Part shown: positions 50,426 to 63,979 of the stretch, one piece after another
Position numbering within the stretch: position 1 is the first letter of the stretch
Layout: each line of letters opens with the position of its first letter
Assembly (NCBI GenBank): GCA_014654115.1
Contig: JACWDO010000003.1
Coordinates: forward strand, 7,303-71,302
Source: Pelagibacterales bacterium SAG-MED17
GTDB lineage: Bacteria; Pseudomonadota; Alphaproteobacteria; Pelagibacterales; Pelagibacteraceae
Length of the DNA stretch: 64,000 nucleotides
Direction: 5' to 3'
The notes under the pieces: model-generated
Database searches by the model: none
What the model saw: the letters and a program-made list of their open reading frames with translations, nothing else
Told to the model about the DNA's origin: nothing
Program-made: the position numbers and the translations under genes

Positions 50426-51577
50426 CTACTTTCGATAAATAATTTTTGAAGGATCAAGATCTTTGATACTCTTACACCCCATCAATATCATGTTACGTCT
50501 GATCTCGTCATGCATATTTTGTAAAAGTTTTTCAACGCCTTGTTGGCCACCAGCCCCTAAACTAAACAAAAATGCTTTACCAAAACTACAAGCTGTCGCA
50601 CCTGCCGCTAATGCTTTAAGAACATGTGTTCCTCTTCTCACTCCACCATCTAAAATTACCTCTAACTTATCTCCCACGGCATCTCTAATAGCTTTTACTT
50701 GATCAAATGGAGACCTAGACCCATCAAGTTGTCTTCCTCCATGATTTGATATCATTATAGCGGTACATCCTATGTCTATTGCTCTTTTAGCATCATCAAC
50801 TGACATAACTCCTTTAAGAGCAATTGGGCCATCCCATTTTTTTATACAGTATTCTGCATCTTTCCAATTCATAGCAGGATCATATTGCTCATTTATATAT
50901 CCCATAACAGATTGTGCAATATTTGTACCTTTATCAACTTTATCTTTAAGATTTGCTAATTCAAATTTCTTATGCGTAAAATAATTAAAGACCCACTGAG
51001 GTCTCATAGCAAAACTCATTAAACTATCTAAAGTGAATTTCGGTGGTGTTGTAAAACCTGTTCTATGATCTCTTTCTCTATTTCCAGCAACAATAGTATC
51101 AACTGTGATACACATTCCATTGAAGTTTGCTCTTTTACATCTATCAATTAAGTCATTAGTTATTGATTGATCCTTATGGATATATAATTGGAAAATTTTT
51201 GGTCCACTTGAAAGATTTGCGATTTCTTCAATCGAAAAAGATGCCATTGTAGACATGCTATAAATTGTTCCAAATTTTTCAGCAGCACGAGCAGAAGCTT
51301 TATCTCCATCAGGATGGTATAAACTTTGCATGGCAGTAGGGGATAGAAAAATTGGCATATCCATTTTTGTTCCAAAAACCTCTGTTTTTAAATCAGGCTC
51401 GCCAACGCTATTTAAAATATTCGGAATTAGATCACAGTCATTAAATGAATATGTGTTTCTATTCATTGTAATTTCATCGTCAGCTCCACCGTCTATGTAG
51501 TGAAAAATAGGTGCAGGTAGTTTTTTTTTTGCTAACTTTCTAAAGTCATCAAAGTTATAGCAATTGCTTAAACTCAT
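50426..51577 (-). CDS. FMN-dependent alpha-hydroxy acid dehydrogenase (LldD/glycolate oxidase family), paralog 2
   Basis: FHYIDGG, GNRERD, SNHGGRQLD, DGGVRRG. Confidence 0.9.
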   Translation of the reverse strand: MSLSNCYNFDDFRKLAKKKLPAPIFHYIDGGADDEITMNRNTYSFNDCDLIPNILNSVGEPDLKTEVFGTKMDMPIFLSPTAMQSLYHPDGDKASARAAEKFGTIYSMSTMASFSIEEIANLSSGPKIFQLYIHKDQSITNDLIDRCKRANFNGMCITVDTIVAGNRERDHRTGFTTPPKFTLDSLMSFAMRPQWVFNYFTHKKFELANLKDKVDKGTNIAQSVMGYINEQYDPAMNWKDAEYCIKKWDGPIALKGVMSVDDAKRAIDIGCTAIMISNHGGRQLDGSRSPFDQVKAIRDAVGDKLEVILDGGVRRGTHVLKALAAGATACSFGKAFLFSLGAGGQQGVEKLLQNMHDEIRRNMILMGCKSIKDLDPSKIIYRK

Positions 51578-52728
51578 TATCCTCTAAATCTTAAATTACT
51601 TCTGTTTAGGTCACTGATTTTTGTGCAACCCATTAATTTCATATCTCGTTGCAGTTCAGTTTTATATTGATTTAGTGCTCTTTCCACCCCAGCTTGACCT
51701 GCTGCTGCTAATGCATAAAGATAAAGTCTTCCACCTGAGCAAGCTTTAGCACCTAAGGATAATGCTTTAAGCATATGAGTTCCTCTGTGAATTCCGCCTT
51801 CACATATAACATCAAGCTTGTCACCAACAGCATCAACAATTTCTGCAAGTTGGTCAAATGGAGATCTGGATCCATCTAACTGTCTTCCACCATGATTTGA
51901 AACCATAATTCCAGTACAACCGATATCTACAGCTTTTTTTGCATCTTCAACACTCATAATACCTTTAAGAGCAAAATGGCCGCCCCATTGAGAACAAAGT
52001 TTTTCAGCATCTTTCCAATTCATAGATTGGTCTAACATAGTAGAAAAATAACTTCCAATTGAAGAGTTAGTGCTTGTGCCTTCTTTTACAAAATCTTGAA
52101 GGTGAGGTAATTCAAATTTACCTTTTGTTAGATAGTTTATTCCCCACATAGGCTTAGTGGCAAAACTAAACAAACTTGATAAAGTTAACTTAGGTGGAGA
52201 TGTAAAACCAGTTCTTAAATCTCTCTCCCTGTTTCCACCAGTAATAGTATCTACCGTTAAAGCCATTACATCAAATTTTGCTGCTTTAGCTCTCTCTAAA
52301 CAAGAGTCATTCAAGCCTCTATCTTTGTGGAAGTAAAATTGAAACATCTTAGGAGTATCAATCATAGCAGAAATTTCTTCTACACTGACTGTAGCCAAAG
52401 CTGAAACACCAAACATTGTATTAAATTTTTTAGCTGCTTTTCCTACCGCTCTTTCTCCATCATAATGAAAAAGTCTTTGAAGCGCTGTAGGTGCTAGGTA
52501 AAATGGTAAATCTAATTTTTTTCCAAATATTGTTGTTGAAAGATCAACATTTTCAACTCCTCTCAAAACATTTGGAACTAGATCAACATCATCAAAAGCA
52601 CTAGTATTTCTTGCATATGTTATCTCATCATCTGCGGCACCATCAATGTAATGAAAAATTGGAGAAGGTAATTTTTTTTTAGCTAGTTTTCTAAAATCAC
52701 CAAAGTTATGACAATCTTTTAAATTCAT
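51577..52728 (-). CDS. FMN-dependent alpha-hydroxy acid dehydrogenase (LldD/glycolate oxidase family), paralog 1
   Basis: FHYIDGA, GNRERD, SNHGGRQLD, EGGIHRG. Confidence 0.9.
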   Translation of the reverse strand: MNLKDCHNFGDFRKLAKKKLPSPIFHYIDGAADDEITYARNTSAFDDVDLVPNVLRGVENVDLSTTIFGKKLDLPFYLAPTALQRLFHYDGERAVGKAAKKFNTMFGVSALATVSVEEISAMIDTPKMFQFYFHKDRGLNDSCLERAKAAKFDVMALTVDTITGGNRERDLRTGFTSPPKLTLSSLFSFATKPMWGINYLTKGKFELPHLQDFVKEGTSTNSSIGSYFSTMLDQSMNWKDAEKLCSQWGGHFALKGIMSVEDAKKAVDIGCTGIMVSNHGGRQLDGSRSPFDQLAEIVDAVGDKLDVICEGGIHRGTHMLKALSLGAKACSGGRLYLYALAAAGQAGVERALNQYKTELQRDMKLMGCTKISDLNRSNLRFRG

Positions 52729-57954: not shown

Positions 57955-58506
57955 GTGAATAAATCTATTTTAAAATTCGTAACTGATTTAGGGCCTTTAG
58001 TAATATTTTTTTATTTTTATTATAATAATGATAAAAACTTAATTATTGCAATACCTCCACTTATAGTTGCAACTATTATAGCAGTTTTAATAATGTGGAT
58101 TGTTGAAAAGACAATTCCAAAAGTACCTTTAATAAGCGGAATATTAATTACTTTATTTGGTGGTTTAACAATTTATTTTGATGATCCTATATTTATTTAC
58201 ATGAAGCCCACAATTATAAATATATTGTTCGGTCTTGCATTAATGTTTGGCAAATACTTTACAAATGAACCAGTTTTAAAAAAATTACTTGGAAAATCTA
58301 TGCCTTTAAGTGATGAAGGATGGGAGATTTTAAATAAAAGATGGACGTACTTCTTTTTTGGATTAGCGATTTTAAATGAAATAATTTGGAGAACACAATC
58401 AGAAGAATTTTGGGTAAACTTTAAAGTTTGGGGAATGTTGCCAATAACCTTTATTTTTACCGCTTTTCAAATAGGATTGATAAATAAGTATAAAATTAAT
58501 GAATAG
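57955..58506 (+). CDS. yciB: Inner membrane protein YciB / septation protein A
   Basis: DLGPLVIFF, FIYMKPTI, W..LN.RW, WVNFKVWG; GTG start at 57955 chosen. Confidence 0.88.
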   Translation: MNKSILKFVTDLGPLVIFFYFYYNNDKNLIIAIPPLIVATIIAVLIMWIVEKTIPKVPLISGILITLFGGLTIYFDDPIFIYMKPTIINILFGLALMFGKYFTNEPVLKKLLGKSMPLSDEGWEILNKRWTYFFFGLAILNEIIWRTQSEEFWVNFKVWGMLPITFIFTAFQIGLINKYKINE

Positions 58507-58834
58507 AAACCTAAGATTAGTAATTGATAATAATAAAAAAGAGGAAAAACAAAAATATTTTTTCGAAAAAAAAGAATTAAAAATAATTTTAAATTTATAT
58601 GCTAAAATGGTTTCTAAGGGTTCGTGGAAAGATTATGGTTTAAGTAATTCAAATCAACAAGTCACTTTTAATGTTTTTAGAAATGCATCTGAGAATGCAT
58701 GTTTTAAGATTTGCAAAAACTTTAAACCAAAGAATAAAAATCTTAAATATTTGATTACTGATACAAATGGTCTTATTTTAAAGAATTCATATGATTTAAA
58801 TTCTTTAATGATAAATATAAATCATCTTAACTAA
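58499..58834 (+). CDS. DUF2794-like protein
   Basis: FEKKELKIILNLYAKMVSKGSWKDY pattern typical of this alphaproteobacterial family. Confidence 0.65.
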   Translation: MNRNLRLVIDNNKKEEKQKYFFEKKELKIILNLYAKMVSKGSWKDYGLSNSNQQVTFNVFRNASENACFKICKNFKPKNKNLKYLITDTNGLILKNSYDLNSLMININHLN

Positions 58835-59349
58835 TTACACCATCCGTCTTTTTGAATTAACGCAGGTTGATAATCACTTGCAACATGTGTTTTTACCCAT
58901 AATGCAATTCTTTTTTTTGAAGAATTATTTGGGCAATCTGTTTCATCAAACCTCATTCTCCCATTTGTGTCATTTGAACTATTTCTGCCAGTATAAACAA
59001 CAATTACTGAATTATCATAGGGATTTGTATAACCTTGGTCTAAGAAATAATTAATAAAAATATTATTCAAGCCATTAATACCACCAGGGTTATTGTTAAC
59101 ATCGCAATTTATTGATCTCGTATCACTTAGCGTTAACATCCCACCACCTTGAACATCACATAATTTTAGTGTGTTATTTATAAATTTTACCGCTTGAGCA
59201 TGTTGTTGAAGAGTGGCATTTCTTTTTGCACTTTGTGTATAACCATTATAAGCTACAACACCTACAGCAGCTAGAATACCGATGATGGCTACGACGACTA
59301 AAAGCTCAATTAATGTGAAACCATCTCTGTTTATGGCGTCCTTTACCAT
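58831..59349 (-). CDS. Type IV pilin-like protein (array copy 10, last)
   Basis: G|FTLIELLVVVAIIGILAAVGVVAYNGYT class III signal. Confidence 0.9.
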   Translation of the reverse strand: MVKDAINRDGFTLIELLVVVAIIGILAAVGVVAYNGYTQSAKRNATLQQHAQAVKFINNTLKLCDVQGGGMLTLSDTRSINCDVNNNPGGINGLNNIFINYFLDQGYTNPYDNSVIVVYTGRNSSNDTNGRMRFDETDCPNNSSKKRIALWVKTHVASDYQPALIQKDGWCN

Positions 59350-59882
59350 TGATAAAAAGATACTTGATCTTCGATTCTGTTTTCAGCTTTGTTGCATGGT
59401 GATTTAAAACATGTAAACATATTTACCCATACTTCTCTATTTGAGTTTGACGGTACTTGTAAAAAGACAAAACCTGCATGTGTGTTTGACATATTCCCTT
59501 CTTGTAAAACGTACATGTTTTTTCCATTCCAGTTGCTTACACTAGACGAATTACTCCAATCCATCATGTTATTTATATGATTTTTAAAATATTCTGGAAA
59601 AAAAGCTTGGACATTTCCATAGCAAGTATGCGAGCTATAATTTTTACTATTTAACGTACTCATTAATTGAACAGTGCCACCAATTTCACAATTCGTAATT
59701 ACCAATTTTACTTCTTTAACGACTATTTTATGATTTGACTTTGTTACTGAAGCATTGGCGCTTGAGGTGTAACCATTATAAGCCACCACTCCTACTGCAG
59801 CTAGAATACCGATGATAGCTACAACGACTAATAGTTCTATTAGAGTAAAAGCTCTAAAATTTTTATTTCCACTGTGTTTCAT
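59343..59882 (-). CDS. Type IV pilin-like protein (copy 9)
   Basis: A|FTLIELL...; nearest in-frame ATG (MKHSGNKNFRA) lies inside the 3' end of copy 8. Confidence 0.88.
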   Translation of the reverse strand: MKHSGNKNFRAFTLIELLVVVAIIGILAAVGVVAYNGYTSSANASVTKSNHKIVVKEVKLVITNCEIGGTVQLMSTLNSKNYSSHTCYGNVQAFFPEYFKNHINNMMDWSNSSSVSNWNGKNMYVLQEGNMSNTHAGFVFLQVPSNSNREVWVNMFTCFKSPCNKAENRIEDQVSFYQW

Positions 59883-60387
59883 ATTTCTTAATATTTGAAT
59901 TATCACTGCACGGGCTGTCAATACAAGTACAAATTTCGATAGTCTTTGAGGATGTTTTATAATCCATATTTACATATCCAATATATTTTTCCTGAGTACA
60001 TGCCCAACTATTTCCTTCCATTGCAACGTAGTTTCTACCCCAAGGTTCTTTTGTATGATTATTTTTCCATTCAATTGAATTATTTAAATCATTTGTAAAA
60101 TACTGTCTAAATAACAAATATGTGTTTACATCATACCAACAACCTTTTTCATATTCTGTCTTATCATTAGCTTTCATCATCAGTTTTACTTTGCCATTAG
60201 AACTAATGTTGCATTTTTGTATTAATAAATTCAGTTTTTTGACTGCTGTATTGTGATTAGATTTAGATACTGAGACTTTAGCGCTATTAGTATATCCATT
60301 ATAAGCAACGACACCTACTGCAGCAAGAATACCGATGATGGCTACTACGACTAAAAGTTCTATTAGGGTGAATCCTTTTTGTTTCAT
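59863..60387 (-). CDS. Type IV pilin-like protein (copy 8)
   Basis: MKQKG|FTLIELL... Confidence 0.92.
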   Translation of the reverse strand: MKQKGFTLIELLVVVAIIGILAAVGVVAYNGYTNSAKVSVSKSNHNTAVKKLNLLIQKCNISSNGKVKLMMKANDKTEYEKGCWYDVNTYLLFRQYFTNDLNNSIEWKNNHTKEPWGRNYVAMEGNSWACTQEKYIGYVNMDYKTSSKTIEICTCIDSPCSDNSNIKKYETQWK

Positions 60388-60872
60388 TAATTAACATTAA
60401 TCATAGTGCTTCTACGATTATTAGGATCAGAGCATGGAATTTTATAACATAATGAACAAAAAATTTGTGTGTCATTATTTTCTGAATTAATCAAAGTTTT
60501 GCCTAACGCGTCATCACTATTATCTTTTCCGCTTGTCACGGCTCTTCTTCTGCCCCAAGAAGCATCACTTGGTACATAGGGGTTAATATCTTTTGAGGTA
60601 TTTTCCATACAAATAATTAGTTTAACTGCTCCTCCAGAAACAATATCACTACATGGTAAACATCCTGAGATTATTCTTGAATTTCCAAGAGAGCACAGTT
60701 GAACCTCTGCAGGAATATATTTTTGACATACATTTGAATAAATACTTTTAACTGAATTTTCTTTAGCACTTTCAGTGTAACCATTGTAAGCAACTACTCC
60801 TACTGCAGCTAGAATACCAATGATGGCTACAACGACTAGGAGTTCTATTAGGGTGAAGGCTTTTTGTTTCAT
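60387..60872 (-). CDS. Type IV pilin-like protein (copy 7)
   Basis: MKQKA|FTLIELL...; Cys-rich body. Confidence 0.92.
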   Translation of the reverse strand: MKQKAFTLIELLVVVAIIGILAAVGVVAYNGYTESAKENSVKSIYSNVCQKYIPAEVQLCSLGNSRIISGCLPCSDIVSGGAVKLIICMENTSKDINPYVPSDASWGRRRAVTSGKDNSDDALGKTLINSENNDTQIFCSLCYKIPCSDPNNRRSTMINVN

Positions 60873-61403
60873 TTAAAAAAGAATATCAAAAGTTTTACTT
60901 TTTGCTTGTCCAGTAGACTCTACACAGGTATCGACATACAAAACTGCTTTATTTGAATACCATCCCATAGCAACATGATGGACACCTTGTTCATTAAGAC
61001 CACCCCATCCTTTTGGTTGAGATCCACTAGAAACACATGTTCCTTGATACCGTCCTCCATGTACTGCAGGTATACTTGGGCTATATGCATTTTTAATTAT
61101 TGAGTTAAAATAAGCACTCATTGCACTTGTTACAGTTCCATAATTATTTTTAGAAGTTAGAATATCAGAACAATTAAGTAAATTACTTCCATTATAATTT
61201 AGCAACCCCCCAGATGATTCCATCTCACACTTCTTAATCTCATTAAGCATAGTTTTATAAATAATATTATGATTTGCCTGCGTTACTCTTTTTTTTGCAC
61301 TAGCTGTATATCCATTATAAGCAACCACTCCTACTGCAGCTAGGATACCGATGATAGCTACTACGACTAGGAGTTCTATAAGTGTAAATCCTTTTTGCTT
61401 CAT
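60873..61403 (-). CDS. Type IV pilin-like protein (copy 6)
   Basis: MKQKG|FTLIELL... Confidence 0.92.
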   Translation of the reverse strand: MKQKGFTLIELLVVVAIIGILAAVGVVAYNGYTASAKKRVTQANHNIIYKTMLNEIKKCEMESSGGLLNYNGSNLLNCSDILTSKNNYGTVTSAMSAYFNSIIKNAYSPSIPAVHGGRYQGTCVSSGSQPKGWGGLNEQGVHHVAMGWYSNKAVLYVDTCVESTGQAKSKTFDILF

Positions 61404-61933
61404 TATGGTACTGTAATATCTTTCTTCGACATATCACCACTAAAATTATTATCCCATCTCATTTCCAGTCTCATAATTTTTGGTGAGCCTGATACATTAG
61501 TTATAAAAACATAGCCTGCAGCTTGACTGTTCATAAGTTTTGAAGAAGGATACCCAGAATTTGAACAGTGAAGAACATATTCACTATCTACGTTGTTTTT
61601 TATATAATGATCTGTGTAAGGATTTTTCCATTTCAAAGATTTAAAATGAGCTGTTAAAATGTGACAAGCACCCAAAGGGCTATTATTACAATATCCACTA
61701 GTTACATCTTTTGAATTTCCTGATTGATCATTCATCTTTATAGGTTCACCTAAATCACATTTTGTATAATTTAAACTTATGAAGTTAACAATTTCATTAA
61801 AGTTATGTTTAATTGCATTTTTTTTTGCACTTGCTGTATATCCATTATAAGCAACCACTCCTACAGCAGCTAGAATACCGATGATGGCGACAACGACTAG
61901 GAGTTCTATTAGGGTGAAGGCTTTACGGTTCAT
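61403..61933 (-). CDS. Type IV pilin-like protein (copy 5)
   Basis: MNRKA|FTLIELL... Confidence 0.92.
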   Translation of the reverse strand: MNRKAFTLIELLVVVAIIGILAAVGVVAYNGYTASAKKNAIKHNFNEIVNFISLNYTKCDLGEPIKMNDQSGNSKDVTSGYCNNSPLGACHILTAHFKSLKWKNPYTDHYIKNNVDSEYVLHCSNSGYPSSKLMNSQAAGYVFITNVSGSPKIMRLEMRWDNNFSGDMSKKDITVP

Positions 61934-61936
61934 AAA

Positions 61937-62470
61937 TTAATTTAATGGGACACTGTCTGTTAGTGATTTACCTTTGCCATGACATAATTCTGTTAAAGAC
62001 TCAGGTTCGCATGTATATTTCGTATCAACAATTAATACTGATGGAGAGCCAGATTTAGTAATCAATTTAGTTGCACCAGTTGTTCCTTCTCCCTCTGTTC
62101 CTCCTGTTTCAACTGCTTCAATACATGTGCCAGAATTATGTTTCCAACCCATTGGATTGCACCATTTAAGACTGTTAAAGTGATATGATAATTGTGTTGC
62201 CATCTTATTAGCATTGCCAGCTAAAACATATGGACAAAGATCACTTGTATTTGTTGTAGGGTTTTGTTTTAAAATTAATTCCTCTCCAATTTCACATTTT
62301 GCAAAATTTACTTTTATAAAATTTACTACAGTTTTATGATTTGATTTAGATGTGTTAATCTTTGCGCTCTTGGTGTACCCATTGTAAGCAACCACTCCTA
62401 CTGCAGCAAGGATACCTATGATGGCTACAACGACTAGGAGTTCTATGAGTGTAAAGGCTTTTTGTTTCAT
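61937..62470 (-). CDS. Type IV pilin-like protein (copy 4)
   Basis: MKQKA|FTLIELL...; start moved to ATG at 62470. Confidence 0.92.
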   Translation of the reverse strand: MKQKAFTLIELLVVVAIIGILAAVGVVAYNGYTKSAKINTSKSNHKTVVNFIKVNFAKCEIGEELILKQNPTTNTSDLCPYVLAGNANKMATQLSYHFNSLKWCNPMGWKHNSGTCIEAVETGGTEGEGTTGATKLITKSGSPSVLIVDTKYTCEPESLTELCHGKGKSLTDSVPLN

Positions 62471-62477
62471 AAATAGA

Positions 62478-62975
62478 TTAATAGTCAATTGGTATGATGG
62501 TTTCGATATATTTCTCAACTCTGTTAAGCAAACAAGGATCGCCATAACATGTTCCAATTAAAATATGAGTTTTAGGATTGTAGGGACTTTGCAAACGAAT
62601 AAAACCAGTGGATCCACTATTATTACTATAACTTCCGCCATCAGTTACAACAGTTTTACCAGGTTCGTATATGTGATCTAAATTTGAAAAAGTTTTAACA
62701 ATTGCATCAACAACGTTTTGATAAGTTTTACCTGAGCAGGATAAATTACCTTCCATTACGGTAGACTCGATATTACATTTGGCAAGTTCCGCGGCAATAT
62801 ATTTAATCACTTGACTATGTTGTGTTTTGACAGCAGATTCTTTAGCACTTTTGGTATACCCATTATAAGCAACTACCCCTACTGCAGCTAAAATACCAAT
62901 GATAGCTACGACGACTAAGAGTTCTATTAAAGTGAAGGCTTTATGGTCCAGCTTTTTTCCATGTATTTTTTGCAT
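62478..62975 (-). CDS. Type IV pilin-like protein (copy 3)
   Basis: A|FTLIELL...; start ATG (MQKIHGKKLDHKA) lies 35 nt inside copy 2. Confidence 0.85.
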   Translation of the reverse strand: MQKIHGKKLDHKAFTLIELLVVVAIIGILAAVGVVAYNGYTKSAKESAVKTQHSQVIKYIAAELAKCNIESTVMEGNLSCSGKTYQNVVDAIVKTFSNLDHIYEPGKTVVTDGGSYSNNSGSTGFIRLQSPYNPKTHILIGTCYGDPCLLNRVEKYIETIIPIDY

Positions 62976-63495
62976 TAGTTTTTATTTGTGTCCATGTGTT
63001 TTTGCATCCAGTATTTACTTGAGACCATGTATTTTTAGCATTTGTTTTTACTGGTGTCCAAATAGTTCCAAAATTTGCTGAAGAAATTTTTTGAGTTTTA
63101 GGAGAATAAACATTAACAGAATAATTACCCTTAGATGGCATTGTAATTGATACTGTACCTAATGTGCAAGGATTTGAGCTTATTCCTGATGTGTTTGATG
63201 AGTAGGGGTTTTTTATATTCATACTTTTATTAATATAAGTACTTATCATTGACGTTGGGGGTGGATTAGAATTTCCACAACTATAATTATTAAAAACTAT
63301 GTTTGTACTATCTATTTCACACTTCATAAATTCAAACATTAATGATTTGTTTATATTTTTATAGTTTAATTCTGTTGTTTTTTCTTTAGCAGAATTTGTG
63401 TACCCATTATAGGCAACTACACCAACTGCAGATAAAATTCCAATGATTGCTACAACGACTAAGAGTTCTATTAATGTAAAACCTTTTTGTTCCAT
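62941..63495 (-). CDS. Type IV pilin-like protein (copy 2) with Trp-periodic C-terminal repeats
   Basis: MEQKG|FTLIELLVVVAIIGILSAVG... Confidence 0.9.
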   Translation of the reverse strand: MEQKGFTLIELLVVVAIIGILSAVGVVAYNGYTNSAKEKTTELNYKNINKSLMFEFMKCEIDSTNIVFNNYSCGNSNPPPTSMISTYINKSMNIKNPYSSNTSGISSNPCTLGTVSITMPSKGNYSVNVYSPKTQKISSANFGTIWTPVKTNAKNTWSQVNTGCKNTWTQIKTNAKNTWKKAGP

Positions 63496-63499
63496 AATA

Positions 63500-63979
63500 T
63501 TATGGATACTGAGATTTTGGCCACTGATGAGAGGTAACTTTTCCTCTACATCTTACTCTTAATTTAAATCCTGCAGACTCTGGATAATAGGCAAATTGCC
63601 CATCTTTAGGTGGATCACCAATATAACTTAATATTCCTAAATTATAATCTAAGTCCTCATATGGACTCTTCGCATAGTTGGTAAAATGTTTGACAGTTTC
63701 TCCAGCTATGGTTCCAAAATTTGAACAAGATATATCTCTTGCAGTACCTTCTTTATTATTTGTATATTGACCTTTCAAAGACACTTTTCCATCTATATCG
63801 CACAAAGTCCAATGCTGATTAATTAGTCTTTTTAAAGTTGCATAATGATTTAAACAAACTTTTTCTTTTGCACTAGCTGTATAACCATTATAAGCAACAA
63901 CACCTACTGCAGCAAGAATACCGATGATTGCTACTACGACTAGGAGTTCAATTAGGGTGAATGCTTTAATTTTAATCAT
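63500..63979 (-). CDS. Type IV pilin-like protein (copy 1 in window)
   Basis: MIKIKA|FTLIELL... Confidence 0.92.
   Translation of the reverse strand: MIKIKAFTLIELLVVVAIIGILAAVGVVAYNGYTASAKEKVCLNHYATLKRLINQHWTLCDIDGKVSLKGQYTNNKEGTARDISCSNFGTIAGETVKHFTNYAKSPYEDLDYNLGILSYIGDPPKDGQFAYYPESAGFKLRVRCRGKVTSHQWPKSQYP

Follow-up and report, generated by a model that had tools for sequence, protein, structure and literature searches.

A strand-switching synonymous base bias in the shared arm of SAR11 pilin cassettes, a likely footprint of head swapping

In a 64,000-nucleotide stretch of DNA from Pelagibacterales bacterium SAG-MED17 (contig JACWDO010000003.1, positions 7303-71302; hereafter the window), ten intact type IV pilin-like genes lie head-to-tail on the minus strand, each with a start of ~33 nearly constant codons (the arm) followed by a variable remainder (the head). 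Synonymous sites in this arm carry a strong base bias that switches strand along its length. We assign a probability of roughly 0.55 to the reading in which heads are swapped by homologous pairing between arms, without a dedicated recombinase, and in which this pairing makes the bias. A preliminary description of the window had noted invariant synonymous positions around the motif TAGTCGT and proposed that a crossover core or protein-binding site is embedded there; the observation is confirmed and the site hypothesis is rejected, the DNA-level effect being real and better explained as a recombination footprint.

Codon bias along the shared arm

In the ten window copies, the counts behind this proposal are right: TAGTCGT occurs in 10/10, as do YTA for the second Leu, GTC for the first Val, ATC for the first codon of the Ile pair, and CTN for the first Leu (CTC in 7/10), and neighboring codons vary. 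C-ending codons are, as had been stated, rare in this genome (29.6% GC, 61% complete), with GTC representing 6.4% of Val, ATC 8.5% of Ile, and CTC 2.3% of Leu codons across 734 open reading frames (ORFs). By independent chance, 10/10 GTC and 10/10 ATC would have probabilities of ~1e-12 and ~2e-11, although the copies are non-independent. Just past the window edge, none of the three next pilin genes (an 11th array copy, a minor and a major pilin) has a C-ending Val codon, and the 11th array copy lacks TAGTCGT. C is present in 115 of the 143 copies found directly after another cassette, as all ten window copies are, and 0.8^10 is ~0.11, so that the 10/10 of the window is a high draw from a family-wide bias rather than invariance.

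To describe this family-wide pattern, the arm was searched in 301 family genomes, giving matches in 81 and up to 24 per genome, and a second scan used an arm pattern with third positions left free on a sample covering 26 of 64 parts. The homologue sample includes at least 409 distinct copies from at least 107 assemblies, and all homologue counts given here are among the matches listed. These comprise 231 array copies, 45 major pilins located directly after pilC, 19 singles, 64 divergent or minor pilins, and 50 copies with insufficient flank, the last two classes being left out of codon counts. Nearly all arm-pattern records listed were from Pelagibacteraceae or Pelagibacter, and arrays often occurred several per genome, at unrelated loci. 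Outside the source genome, TAGTCGT was present in 141 of 221 array copies (64%) from 42 other assemblies, which reduces the claimed invariance to a bias. Across these 221 copies, 69% had a C-ending Val codon 9, compared to 1/44 major pilins, and similar contrasts between array copies and major pilins were observed for C-ending Ile 13 (81% vs 36%), C-ending Leu 7 (55% vs 0), and G-ending Gly 27 (67% vs 5%).

The G+C content at synonymous third positions (GC3s) was 0.277 in the arm versus 0.146 expected (this genome's codon usage being applied to all genomes, with heads as internal control), 0.137 and 0.157 in heads, and 0.149 in the arm of major pilins. This contrast excludes both a GC-rich foreign donor of the arm, given the genome-level GC3 of the heads, and effects of protein or translation, since major pilins encode nearly the same protein without the bias. 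The constraint thus acts on DNA, as the preliminary description had argued. Among pilins outside arrays, 0/45 major pilins carry the 7-mer, and singles are intermediate, with 26% C at codon 9.

The bias extends over ~100 bp and has opposite signs in the two halves of the arm. At four-fold sites, C and G frequencies were 0.295 and 0.024 across codons 1-17, and 0.032 and 0.200 across codons 18-29, compared to 0.073 and 0.061 genome-wide. In the left half (codons 1-14), C:T was 1123:658, i.e., an odds ratio (OR) of 10.9 (assembly bootstrap 8.7-13.1), and G:A was 88:1134 (OR 0.37, 0.27-0.49). In the right half (codons 21-33), G:A was instead 477:674 (OR 4.6, 4.0-5.2), while the C:T OR was 0.43 (0.37-0.51). 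Both halves therefore agree when considered by strand: G is gained and C lost on whichever strand leaves the arm for a head in the 5' to 3' direction. This four-fold strand composition fits an order of G > A~T > C, and not a plain GC bias. Control ORs were all around 1 (heads, 0.96-1.02; major pilins, 0.94-1.18), the bias ends at the head (codons 34-45, OR 0.76-0.96), and the switch was seen in 23 of the 24 assemblies with at least three copies. Arrays of genus g12, for which one-to-one orthologues are kept in two genomes, were used as a control and had no bias.

A gene-conversion origin had been offered as an alternative to a site: exchange between copies is supported (see below), and a neutral homogenization model is rejected (P 4e-4 for GC, <5e-5 for polarity; the same tests on major pilins gave 0.25 and 0.35, and swapping labels gave P 1e-4). 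The left-half bias also depended on the upstream neighbor, with an OR of 12.5 for copies located after a cassette (n=143) vs 6.4 for copies after non-pilin DNA (n=56), while the right half was unchanged (4.5 vs 4.2).

A second constant type was identified in 19 cassettes from three genomes (genera g4 and g5), with different amino acids in the right half. In this type 2 arm, the left C:T OR was 17, and the right G:A was 107:66 (OR 9.5), on Thr, Gln, Glu, and Lys codons absent from type 1. Phe in this arm ends in C at codon 2 (15/19) but in T at codons 25 and 28. The reappearance of the G bias on other amino acids, along with this switch in Phe codon ending, indicates that the bias is not a motif. 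The three first-in-locus pilins of these genomes, which are majors by position only, were mostly without bias.

Finally, a family of short secreted proteins encoded in the same variable loci combines a shared signal peptide of ~20 codons with unrelated mature parts (L041:2311-5998, L033:10409, L117:2589, G000:C12:56555), and had a DNA match in 56 of 121 genus genomes. Just before the variable part of these genes, the G:A OR was 9-10 (22 copies), compared to 0.92 in 62 other signal-peptide-like genes used as a control, and five extra copies free of search bias gave 21:6. This family is likely a second arm-based cassette system.

Movement of heads between neighbors

Counterparts of four window heads, at 94-97% identity, occur in other assemblies, including one in another genus. 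Across head pairs with ≥90% identity, the upstream DNA was unrelated in 58 and similar in 15. Arms were as alike between assemblies (identity 0.842) as within them (0.862), and less similar to their own major pilin (0.792). Same-head pairs with different upstream DNA differed at 39-46% of synonymous positions in arm codons 2-22, close to the 49-50% of random pairs, and at 10-13% in heads. Hence, the same variable part stands beside different neighbors with junctions inside a shared repeat, as in homology-arm cassette shuffling. In one genome, two copies located 10 kb apart (L036:13116 and L037:2614) are identical from their upstream DNA through codon 34, after which the heads differ, the mark of a recent swap whose junction lies at the arm's right edge.

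Junctions appear to fall mainly near the two edges of the arm. When upstream DNA was ≥97% identical and heads different, the first difference was at codon 1 in 5/8 pairs (codons 9, 25, and 35 in the others), and when heads were ≥96% identical, the last difference was at codons 29-33 in 11/14 pairs. A likelihood fit yielded linkage lengths of ~30 nt on the upstream side (53 pairs) and ~12 nt on the own-head side (65 pairs), i.e., heads carry along only ~12-30 nt of arm, and linkage within the arm falls from an r2 of 0.034 to ~0.003-0.01. Compared to edge-linked junctions, a crossover at codon 9, where the 7-mer lies, was 145 and 358 log units worse, and a single uniform crossover 18 and 41 log units worse, gaps that are overstated since breakpoint pairs overlap. 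Because linkage decays and the junction fits favor arm edges, the moving unit is a head plus the next leader, with junctions near arm edges or with many crossovers inside the arm.

In seawater DNA contigs, bins holding the arm were mostly far deeper than head bins, where summed depth is not a copy number; this contrast fits a shared arm, and short-sided joints were kept out of the breakpoint work. RNA runs provided 6-10 contigs each, which is too small for reading expression. Several pilin stubs were also observed. Four are cut at codon 7-8 and joined to the region upstream of tRNA-Leu(TAA) or its partial copies (L036:9164, L036:14641, L065:5208, L091:572), other stubs end at codons 10.7 to 18.7, and the arm's 5' half is retained in every cassette-derived stub observed. 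Stubs were considered as possible products of an att site, and this was rejected, as the ends are scattered and the four codon 7-8 stubs share one tRNA-Leu junction.

Explanations for the bias

How could head swapping generate such a bias? Array copies differ at ~16% of arm positions, and MutS was not found in 4/4 near-complete relatives, with mutS and mutL also reported missing in other SAR11 subclades (PMC12374537, in part). Because of this divergence and the absence of a detected MutS, pairing between two arms would always hold mismatches. As mismatches are most stable with G and least stable with C (PMC4749234, in part), invading strands carrying G close to their junction end would have a higher chance of pairing and of being retained, so that G would rise, over repeated swaps, on the strand that points to the head. 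The favored strand could be either the 3' invading end or the 5' arm of the donor. In its most general form, this would amount to a strand-polar, G-favoring conversion drive, distinct from GC-biased gene conversion and acting at short, recombinase-free cassette-swapping arms of SAR11 across species and genera, a proposal we consider tentative.

Several observations weigh against pairing as the source of the bias. The pairing step is itself deduced from base composition, and the right half of type 1 is fitted equally well by an added A>G plus C>T mutation rate. The ten window copies have a weak right-half G bias (11:35, OR 1.9), codons 10, 15, 18, and 20 depart from the pattern, and arrays of genus g14, for which the bias alone was scored, show little of it. 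Type 2 has a left half in common with type 1, and heads ~80% identical to those of type 1, and is thus not fully independent, besides being limited to three genomes, while the signal-peptide family has no C-rich left half and only five added copies free of search bias. The overlap between breakpoint pairs and the use of a single genome's codon usage for expected values also count here, as does the route of DNA entry, ComEC and DprA being not found in 4/4 near-complete genomes. Searches bearing on DNA transfer were otherwise negative: no match to the type-1 pattern was obtained in viral contigs, and common 7- and 8-mers of the arm were not over-represented as uptake-sequence or Chi-like words genome-wide (best z 3.1 and 1.8, in a 61%-complete genome).

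The same swapping may instead leave a mutational trace, in which A>G and C>T changes arise on one strand at junctions, through DNA synthesis or the exposure of single strands, and are retained without MutS. Strand-asymmetric A>G changes do flank human meiotic breaks (PMC7615360, in part), and a single added rate of ~10x background A>G predicts ORs of 11 and 0.36, nearly those observed in the left half, with the type-1 right-half composition matching at 5-8x. We nevertheless regard this origin as rather unlikely, because the model allows G to reach at most ~0.33 at four-fold sites, whereas G values of 0.48-0.52 are seen in type 2, where T drops to 0.16-0.20 (few sites). In addition, 11 near-fixed T positions of the left half showed no T>C minor allele in 231 copies, and the bias stops at the head. 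It is still less probable that one ancestral arm happened to be GC-rich and was then kept by selection to match the majority arm, better partners spreading more. The similarity of arms within and between assemblies would be expected under such a history, which is also suggested by sharp differences between neighboring codons, but it predicts neither the strand switch, nor the return of the bias on new amino acids in type 2, nor its dependence on the upstream neighbor.

Recognition of TAGTCGT, or of two inverted half-sites, by a site-specific recombinase or another DNA-binding protein is very improbable and largely refuted, even though rare codons are kept across genera, four stubs end next to the 7-mer, and a PilM-PilN fusion bears an integrase-type N-terminal domain. 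The bias spans codons 1-33, breakpoints are not centered on the 7-mer, and TAGTCGT, rather than being a site, ranks among the stronger points of the left half; the stub ends and their common junction likewise speak against it. Searches of four near-complete, array-rich relatives found no cognate recombinase. The IS110 family (PF01548) had no match in five genomes, four of them near-complete, while the positive control matched in 6/14, and serine recombinases were not found in the four near-complete genomes. Tyrosine recombinases (PF00589) number 1-2 per near-complete genome (n=4), with open frames of 317-340 aa far from arrays; none was found in the 61%-complete source genome or beside the arrays read. 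No integron integrase was found either, in a search that relied on the general PF00589 family, with no IntI-specific model and an incomplete source genome, and reverse transcriptases (PF00078) had no match above cut-off in five genomes. Finally, the genome G229 has biased cassettes without a match to the integrase-type domain, and many carriers of this domain have 2-3 pilins.

The least probable option, at a few chances in a hundred, is a role of these codons in translation, in an internal promoter, or in a structure formed by RNA or single-strand DNA. In ~30% of the predicted RNA ensemble, vs 5% for a pooled null, codons 6-8 and 20-22 pair as a 7-bp helix, and codons 25-27 resemble a -10 box. 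However, no stable hairpin was found in the arm (folding z -0.6 to +1.4), there is no complementary covariation, and real copies do not exceed column shuffles in stability and, as DNA, are less stable than the pooled null. Rfam gave no match in L001 at E≤1, no promoter was called inside any arm, and the type 2 G bias occurs without -10-like codons. As for translation, ordinary gene starts are, like major pilins, without bias.

The integrase-type domain of the PilM-PilN fusion was considered separately. This N-terminal domain of ~65 aa shares 52% identity (39/75) with the N-terminal part of a tyrosine integrase (L258:3600-4877, beside tRNA-Leu), and was detected in 35/301 genomes (L050:15504-17621, L042:19276-19758, G000:C55:766-939). 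It was rejected as a cassette recombinase, as the fusion has no catalytic domain and its distribution does not track arrays. A fold search returned middling scores, with the HPI integrase arm domain (Z 5.5) tied with unrelated folds, and a sequence search of PDB was empty. At the base of the pilus, it may possibly serve to bind DNA, in cells for which searches found neither ComEC nor DprA.

SAR11 genomes turn over variable genes with no insertion sequences and almost no recombinases, and these arrays offer a concrete route for this turnover through a ~100-bp coding arm that genera have in common and that exchanges heads at its edges. The strand-switching G bias would be a quantitative trace of the pairing step, and can be used to scan genomes for other arms. 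If the conversion drive is true, it would constitute a force on synonymous sites outside of current models such as GC-biased conversion or replication skew, and a sequence-only marker of arms, already seen in two pilin arm types and the signal-peptide family. It would also reveal the invading strand end, and provide a mechanism for the unexplained turnover of SAR11 flexible genes. Pilin heads are likely phage receptors or adhesins, so that their exchange would bear on phage-host dynamics in the most abundant ocean bacteria.

Gene map and comparison with known systems

Each of the ten window pilins matched PF07963 and has a prepilin methylation motif, and pilB, pilC, and pilQ adjoin the array, consistent with type IV pilins (Table 1). 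The window edge cuts the locus, which continues with the 11th array copy, a 67-aa ORF, the minor pilin, the major pilA, pilC, pilB, and pilQ; upstream profile matches were to PF00482, PF00437, and PF00263. The 67-aa ORF (L001:7845-8048) is hydrophobic and has no Pfam match, and the minor pilin (L001:8052-8438) has a weak, below cut-off match to ComP_DUS (E 4e-5). The C-terminal tail of cassette 9 includes three 33-bp tandem repeats (window 62959-63060) encoding a Trp-containing repeat. Elsewhere in the window (50426-52728), two tandem 383-aa genes resemble, by eye, paralogues of flavin mononucleotide-dependent alpha-hydroxy-acid dehydrogenase. In genus g14, a pilin array (L201, G096:C3:162000-181500) contains many frameshifted or truncated copies, reflecting either decay or assembly error.

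Table 1 Features of the pilin array and its flank, in window positions.
Feature	Position	Strand	Details
Whole ten-gene pilin array	58831..63979	-	ORFs and Pfam
Pilin cassette 1	58831..59349	-	Last in array, 172 aa
Pilin cassette 2	59343..59882	-	Head 95% identical (aa) to heads in L118 and L099
Pilin cassette 3	59863..60387	-	
Pilin cassette 4	60387..60872	-	Head 97% identical to L118 head with different upstream neighbor
Pilin cassette 5	60873..61403	-	
Pilin cassette 6	61403..61933	-	Head 94% identical to heads in L099 and L087
Pilin cassette 7	61937..62470	-	
Pilin cassette 8	62478..62975	-	
Pilin cassette 9	62941..63495	-	
Pilin cassette 10	63500..63979	-	Head 97% identical to L048 head (other genus, g18), different upstream neighbor
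Shared arm (codons 1-33), cassette 1	59224..59322	-	7-mer 59294-59300
Shared arm, cassette 2	59754..59852	-	7-mer 59824-59830
Shared arm, cassette 3	60277..60375	-	7-mer 60347-60353
Shared arm, cassette 4	60762..60860	-	7-mer 60832-60838
Shared arm, cassette 5	61293..61391	-	7-mer 61363-61369
Shared arm, cassette 6	61823..61921	-	7-mer 61893-61899
Shared arm, cassette 7	62360..62458	-	7-mer 62430-62436
Shared arm, cassette 8	62841..62939	-	7-mer 62911-62917
Shared arm, cassette 9	63385..63483	-	7-mer 63455-63461
Shared arm, cassette 10	63866..63964	-	7-mer 63936-63942
DUF2794 gene	58499..58834	+	Convergent flank; stop codon overlaps that of the array

Several known systems resemble these arrays. 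Like the IncI shufflon (pilV, sfx, Rci), they combine a constant pilin start with variable C-terminal parts and DNA rearrangement at in-frame repeats. The shufflon relies on a perfectly conserved 7-bp core, a conserved 12-bp arm, an adjacent tyrosine recombinase, and inversion between facing sites, with one expressed gene (PMC9045228, in part). Here, by contrast, the repeats are direct and ~100 bp long, the 7-mer is present in under two-thirds of copies, genes are intact, no recombinase was found, and junctions lie near arm edges; all ten copies are in direct orientation, with no facing sites of the shufflon type. In Moraxella, the Piv recombinase (IS110 family) drives an inversion whose crossover lies inside the coding region of the pilin N-terminus, i.e., the same place as in these arrays, from which it differs in that no IS110-family gene was found in the five genomes and copies are direct rather than inverted. 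In Neisseria, pilS copies are silent and partial, and feed a single expression locus. Unlike these, the ten window copies are full ORFs with a start codon and prepilin motif, and heads move between species and loci. We know of no strand-switching codon bias in pilS. The likeness to pilE/pilS would lie in the exchange itself, a replacement of pilin variable regions via conserved pilin DNA that is RecA-mediated in Neisseria (PMC11868660, in part) and is probably of RecA type here.

Integron arrays are similar in their tandem same-strand cassettes, shuffled in order and shared between species. Their attC sites are defined by a palindrome that lies between an inverse core and a core site and folds when single-stranded (PMC3053210, in part), whereas the repeat here is protein-coding, with no attC-type palindrome, stable hairpin, or covariation, and no core pair seen by eye. 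Diversity-generating retroelements involve a reverse transcriptase and A-to-N changes on one strand, while this bias is A>G only and switches strand. GC-biased gene conversion also leaves a base bias at synonymous sites through recombination, but raises C and G equally, whereas here G rises and C falls on one strand. At human hotspots, recombination likewise leaves a base bias, and a change enriched on one side is mirrored by its complement on the other (PMC7615360, in part), although the scale here is 100 bp inside a bacterial gene, with ORs of 5-17.

For SAR11 itself, a metaparalog pool has been described with 2 to 25 pilin copies per genome, no insertion sequences, and only XerC/XerD common, through a mechanism given as 'unresolved' and compatible with homologous replacement; the parts of this preprint considered here describe no shared arm, head swapping, or codon bias (bioRxiv 10.64898/2026.10.07.757358). 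No account of SAR11 pilin head shuffling or strand-switching bias was found in the literature searched, which covered few subscription papers. Overall, these arrays look like a shufflon or an integron while departing from both in their defining features, and work like a Neisseria-type, homology-driven system of pilin variation.

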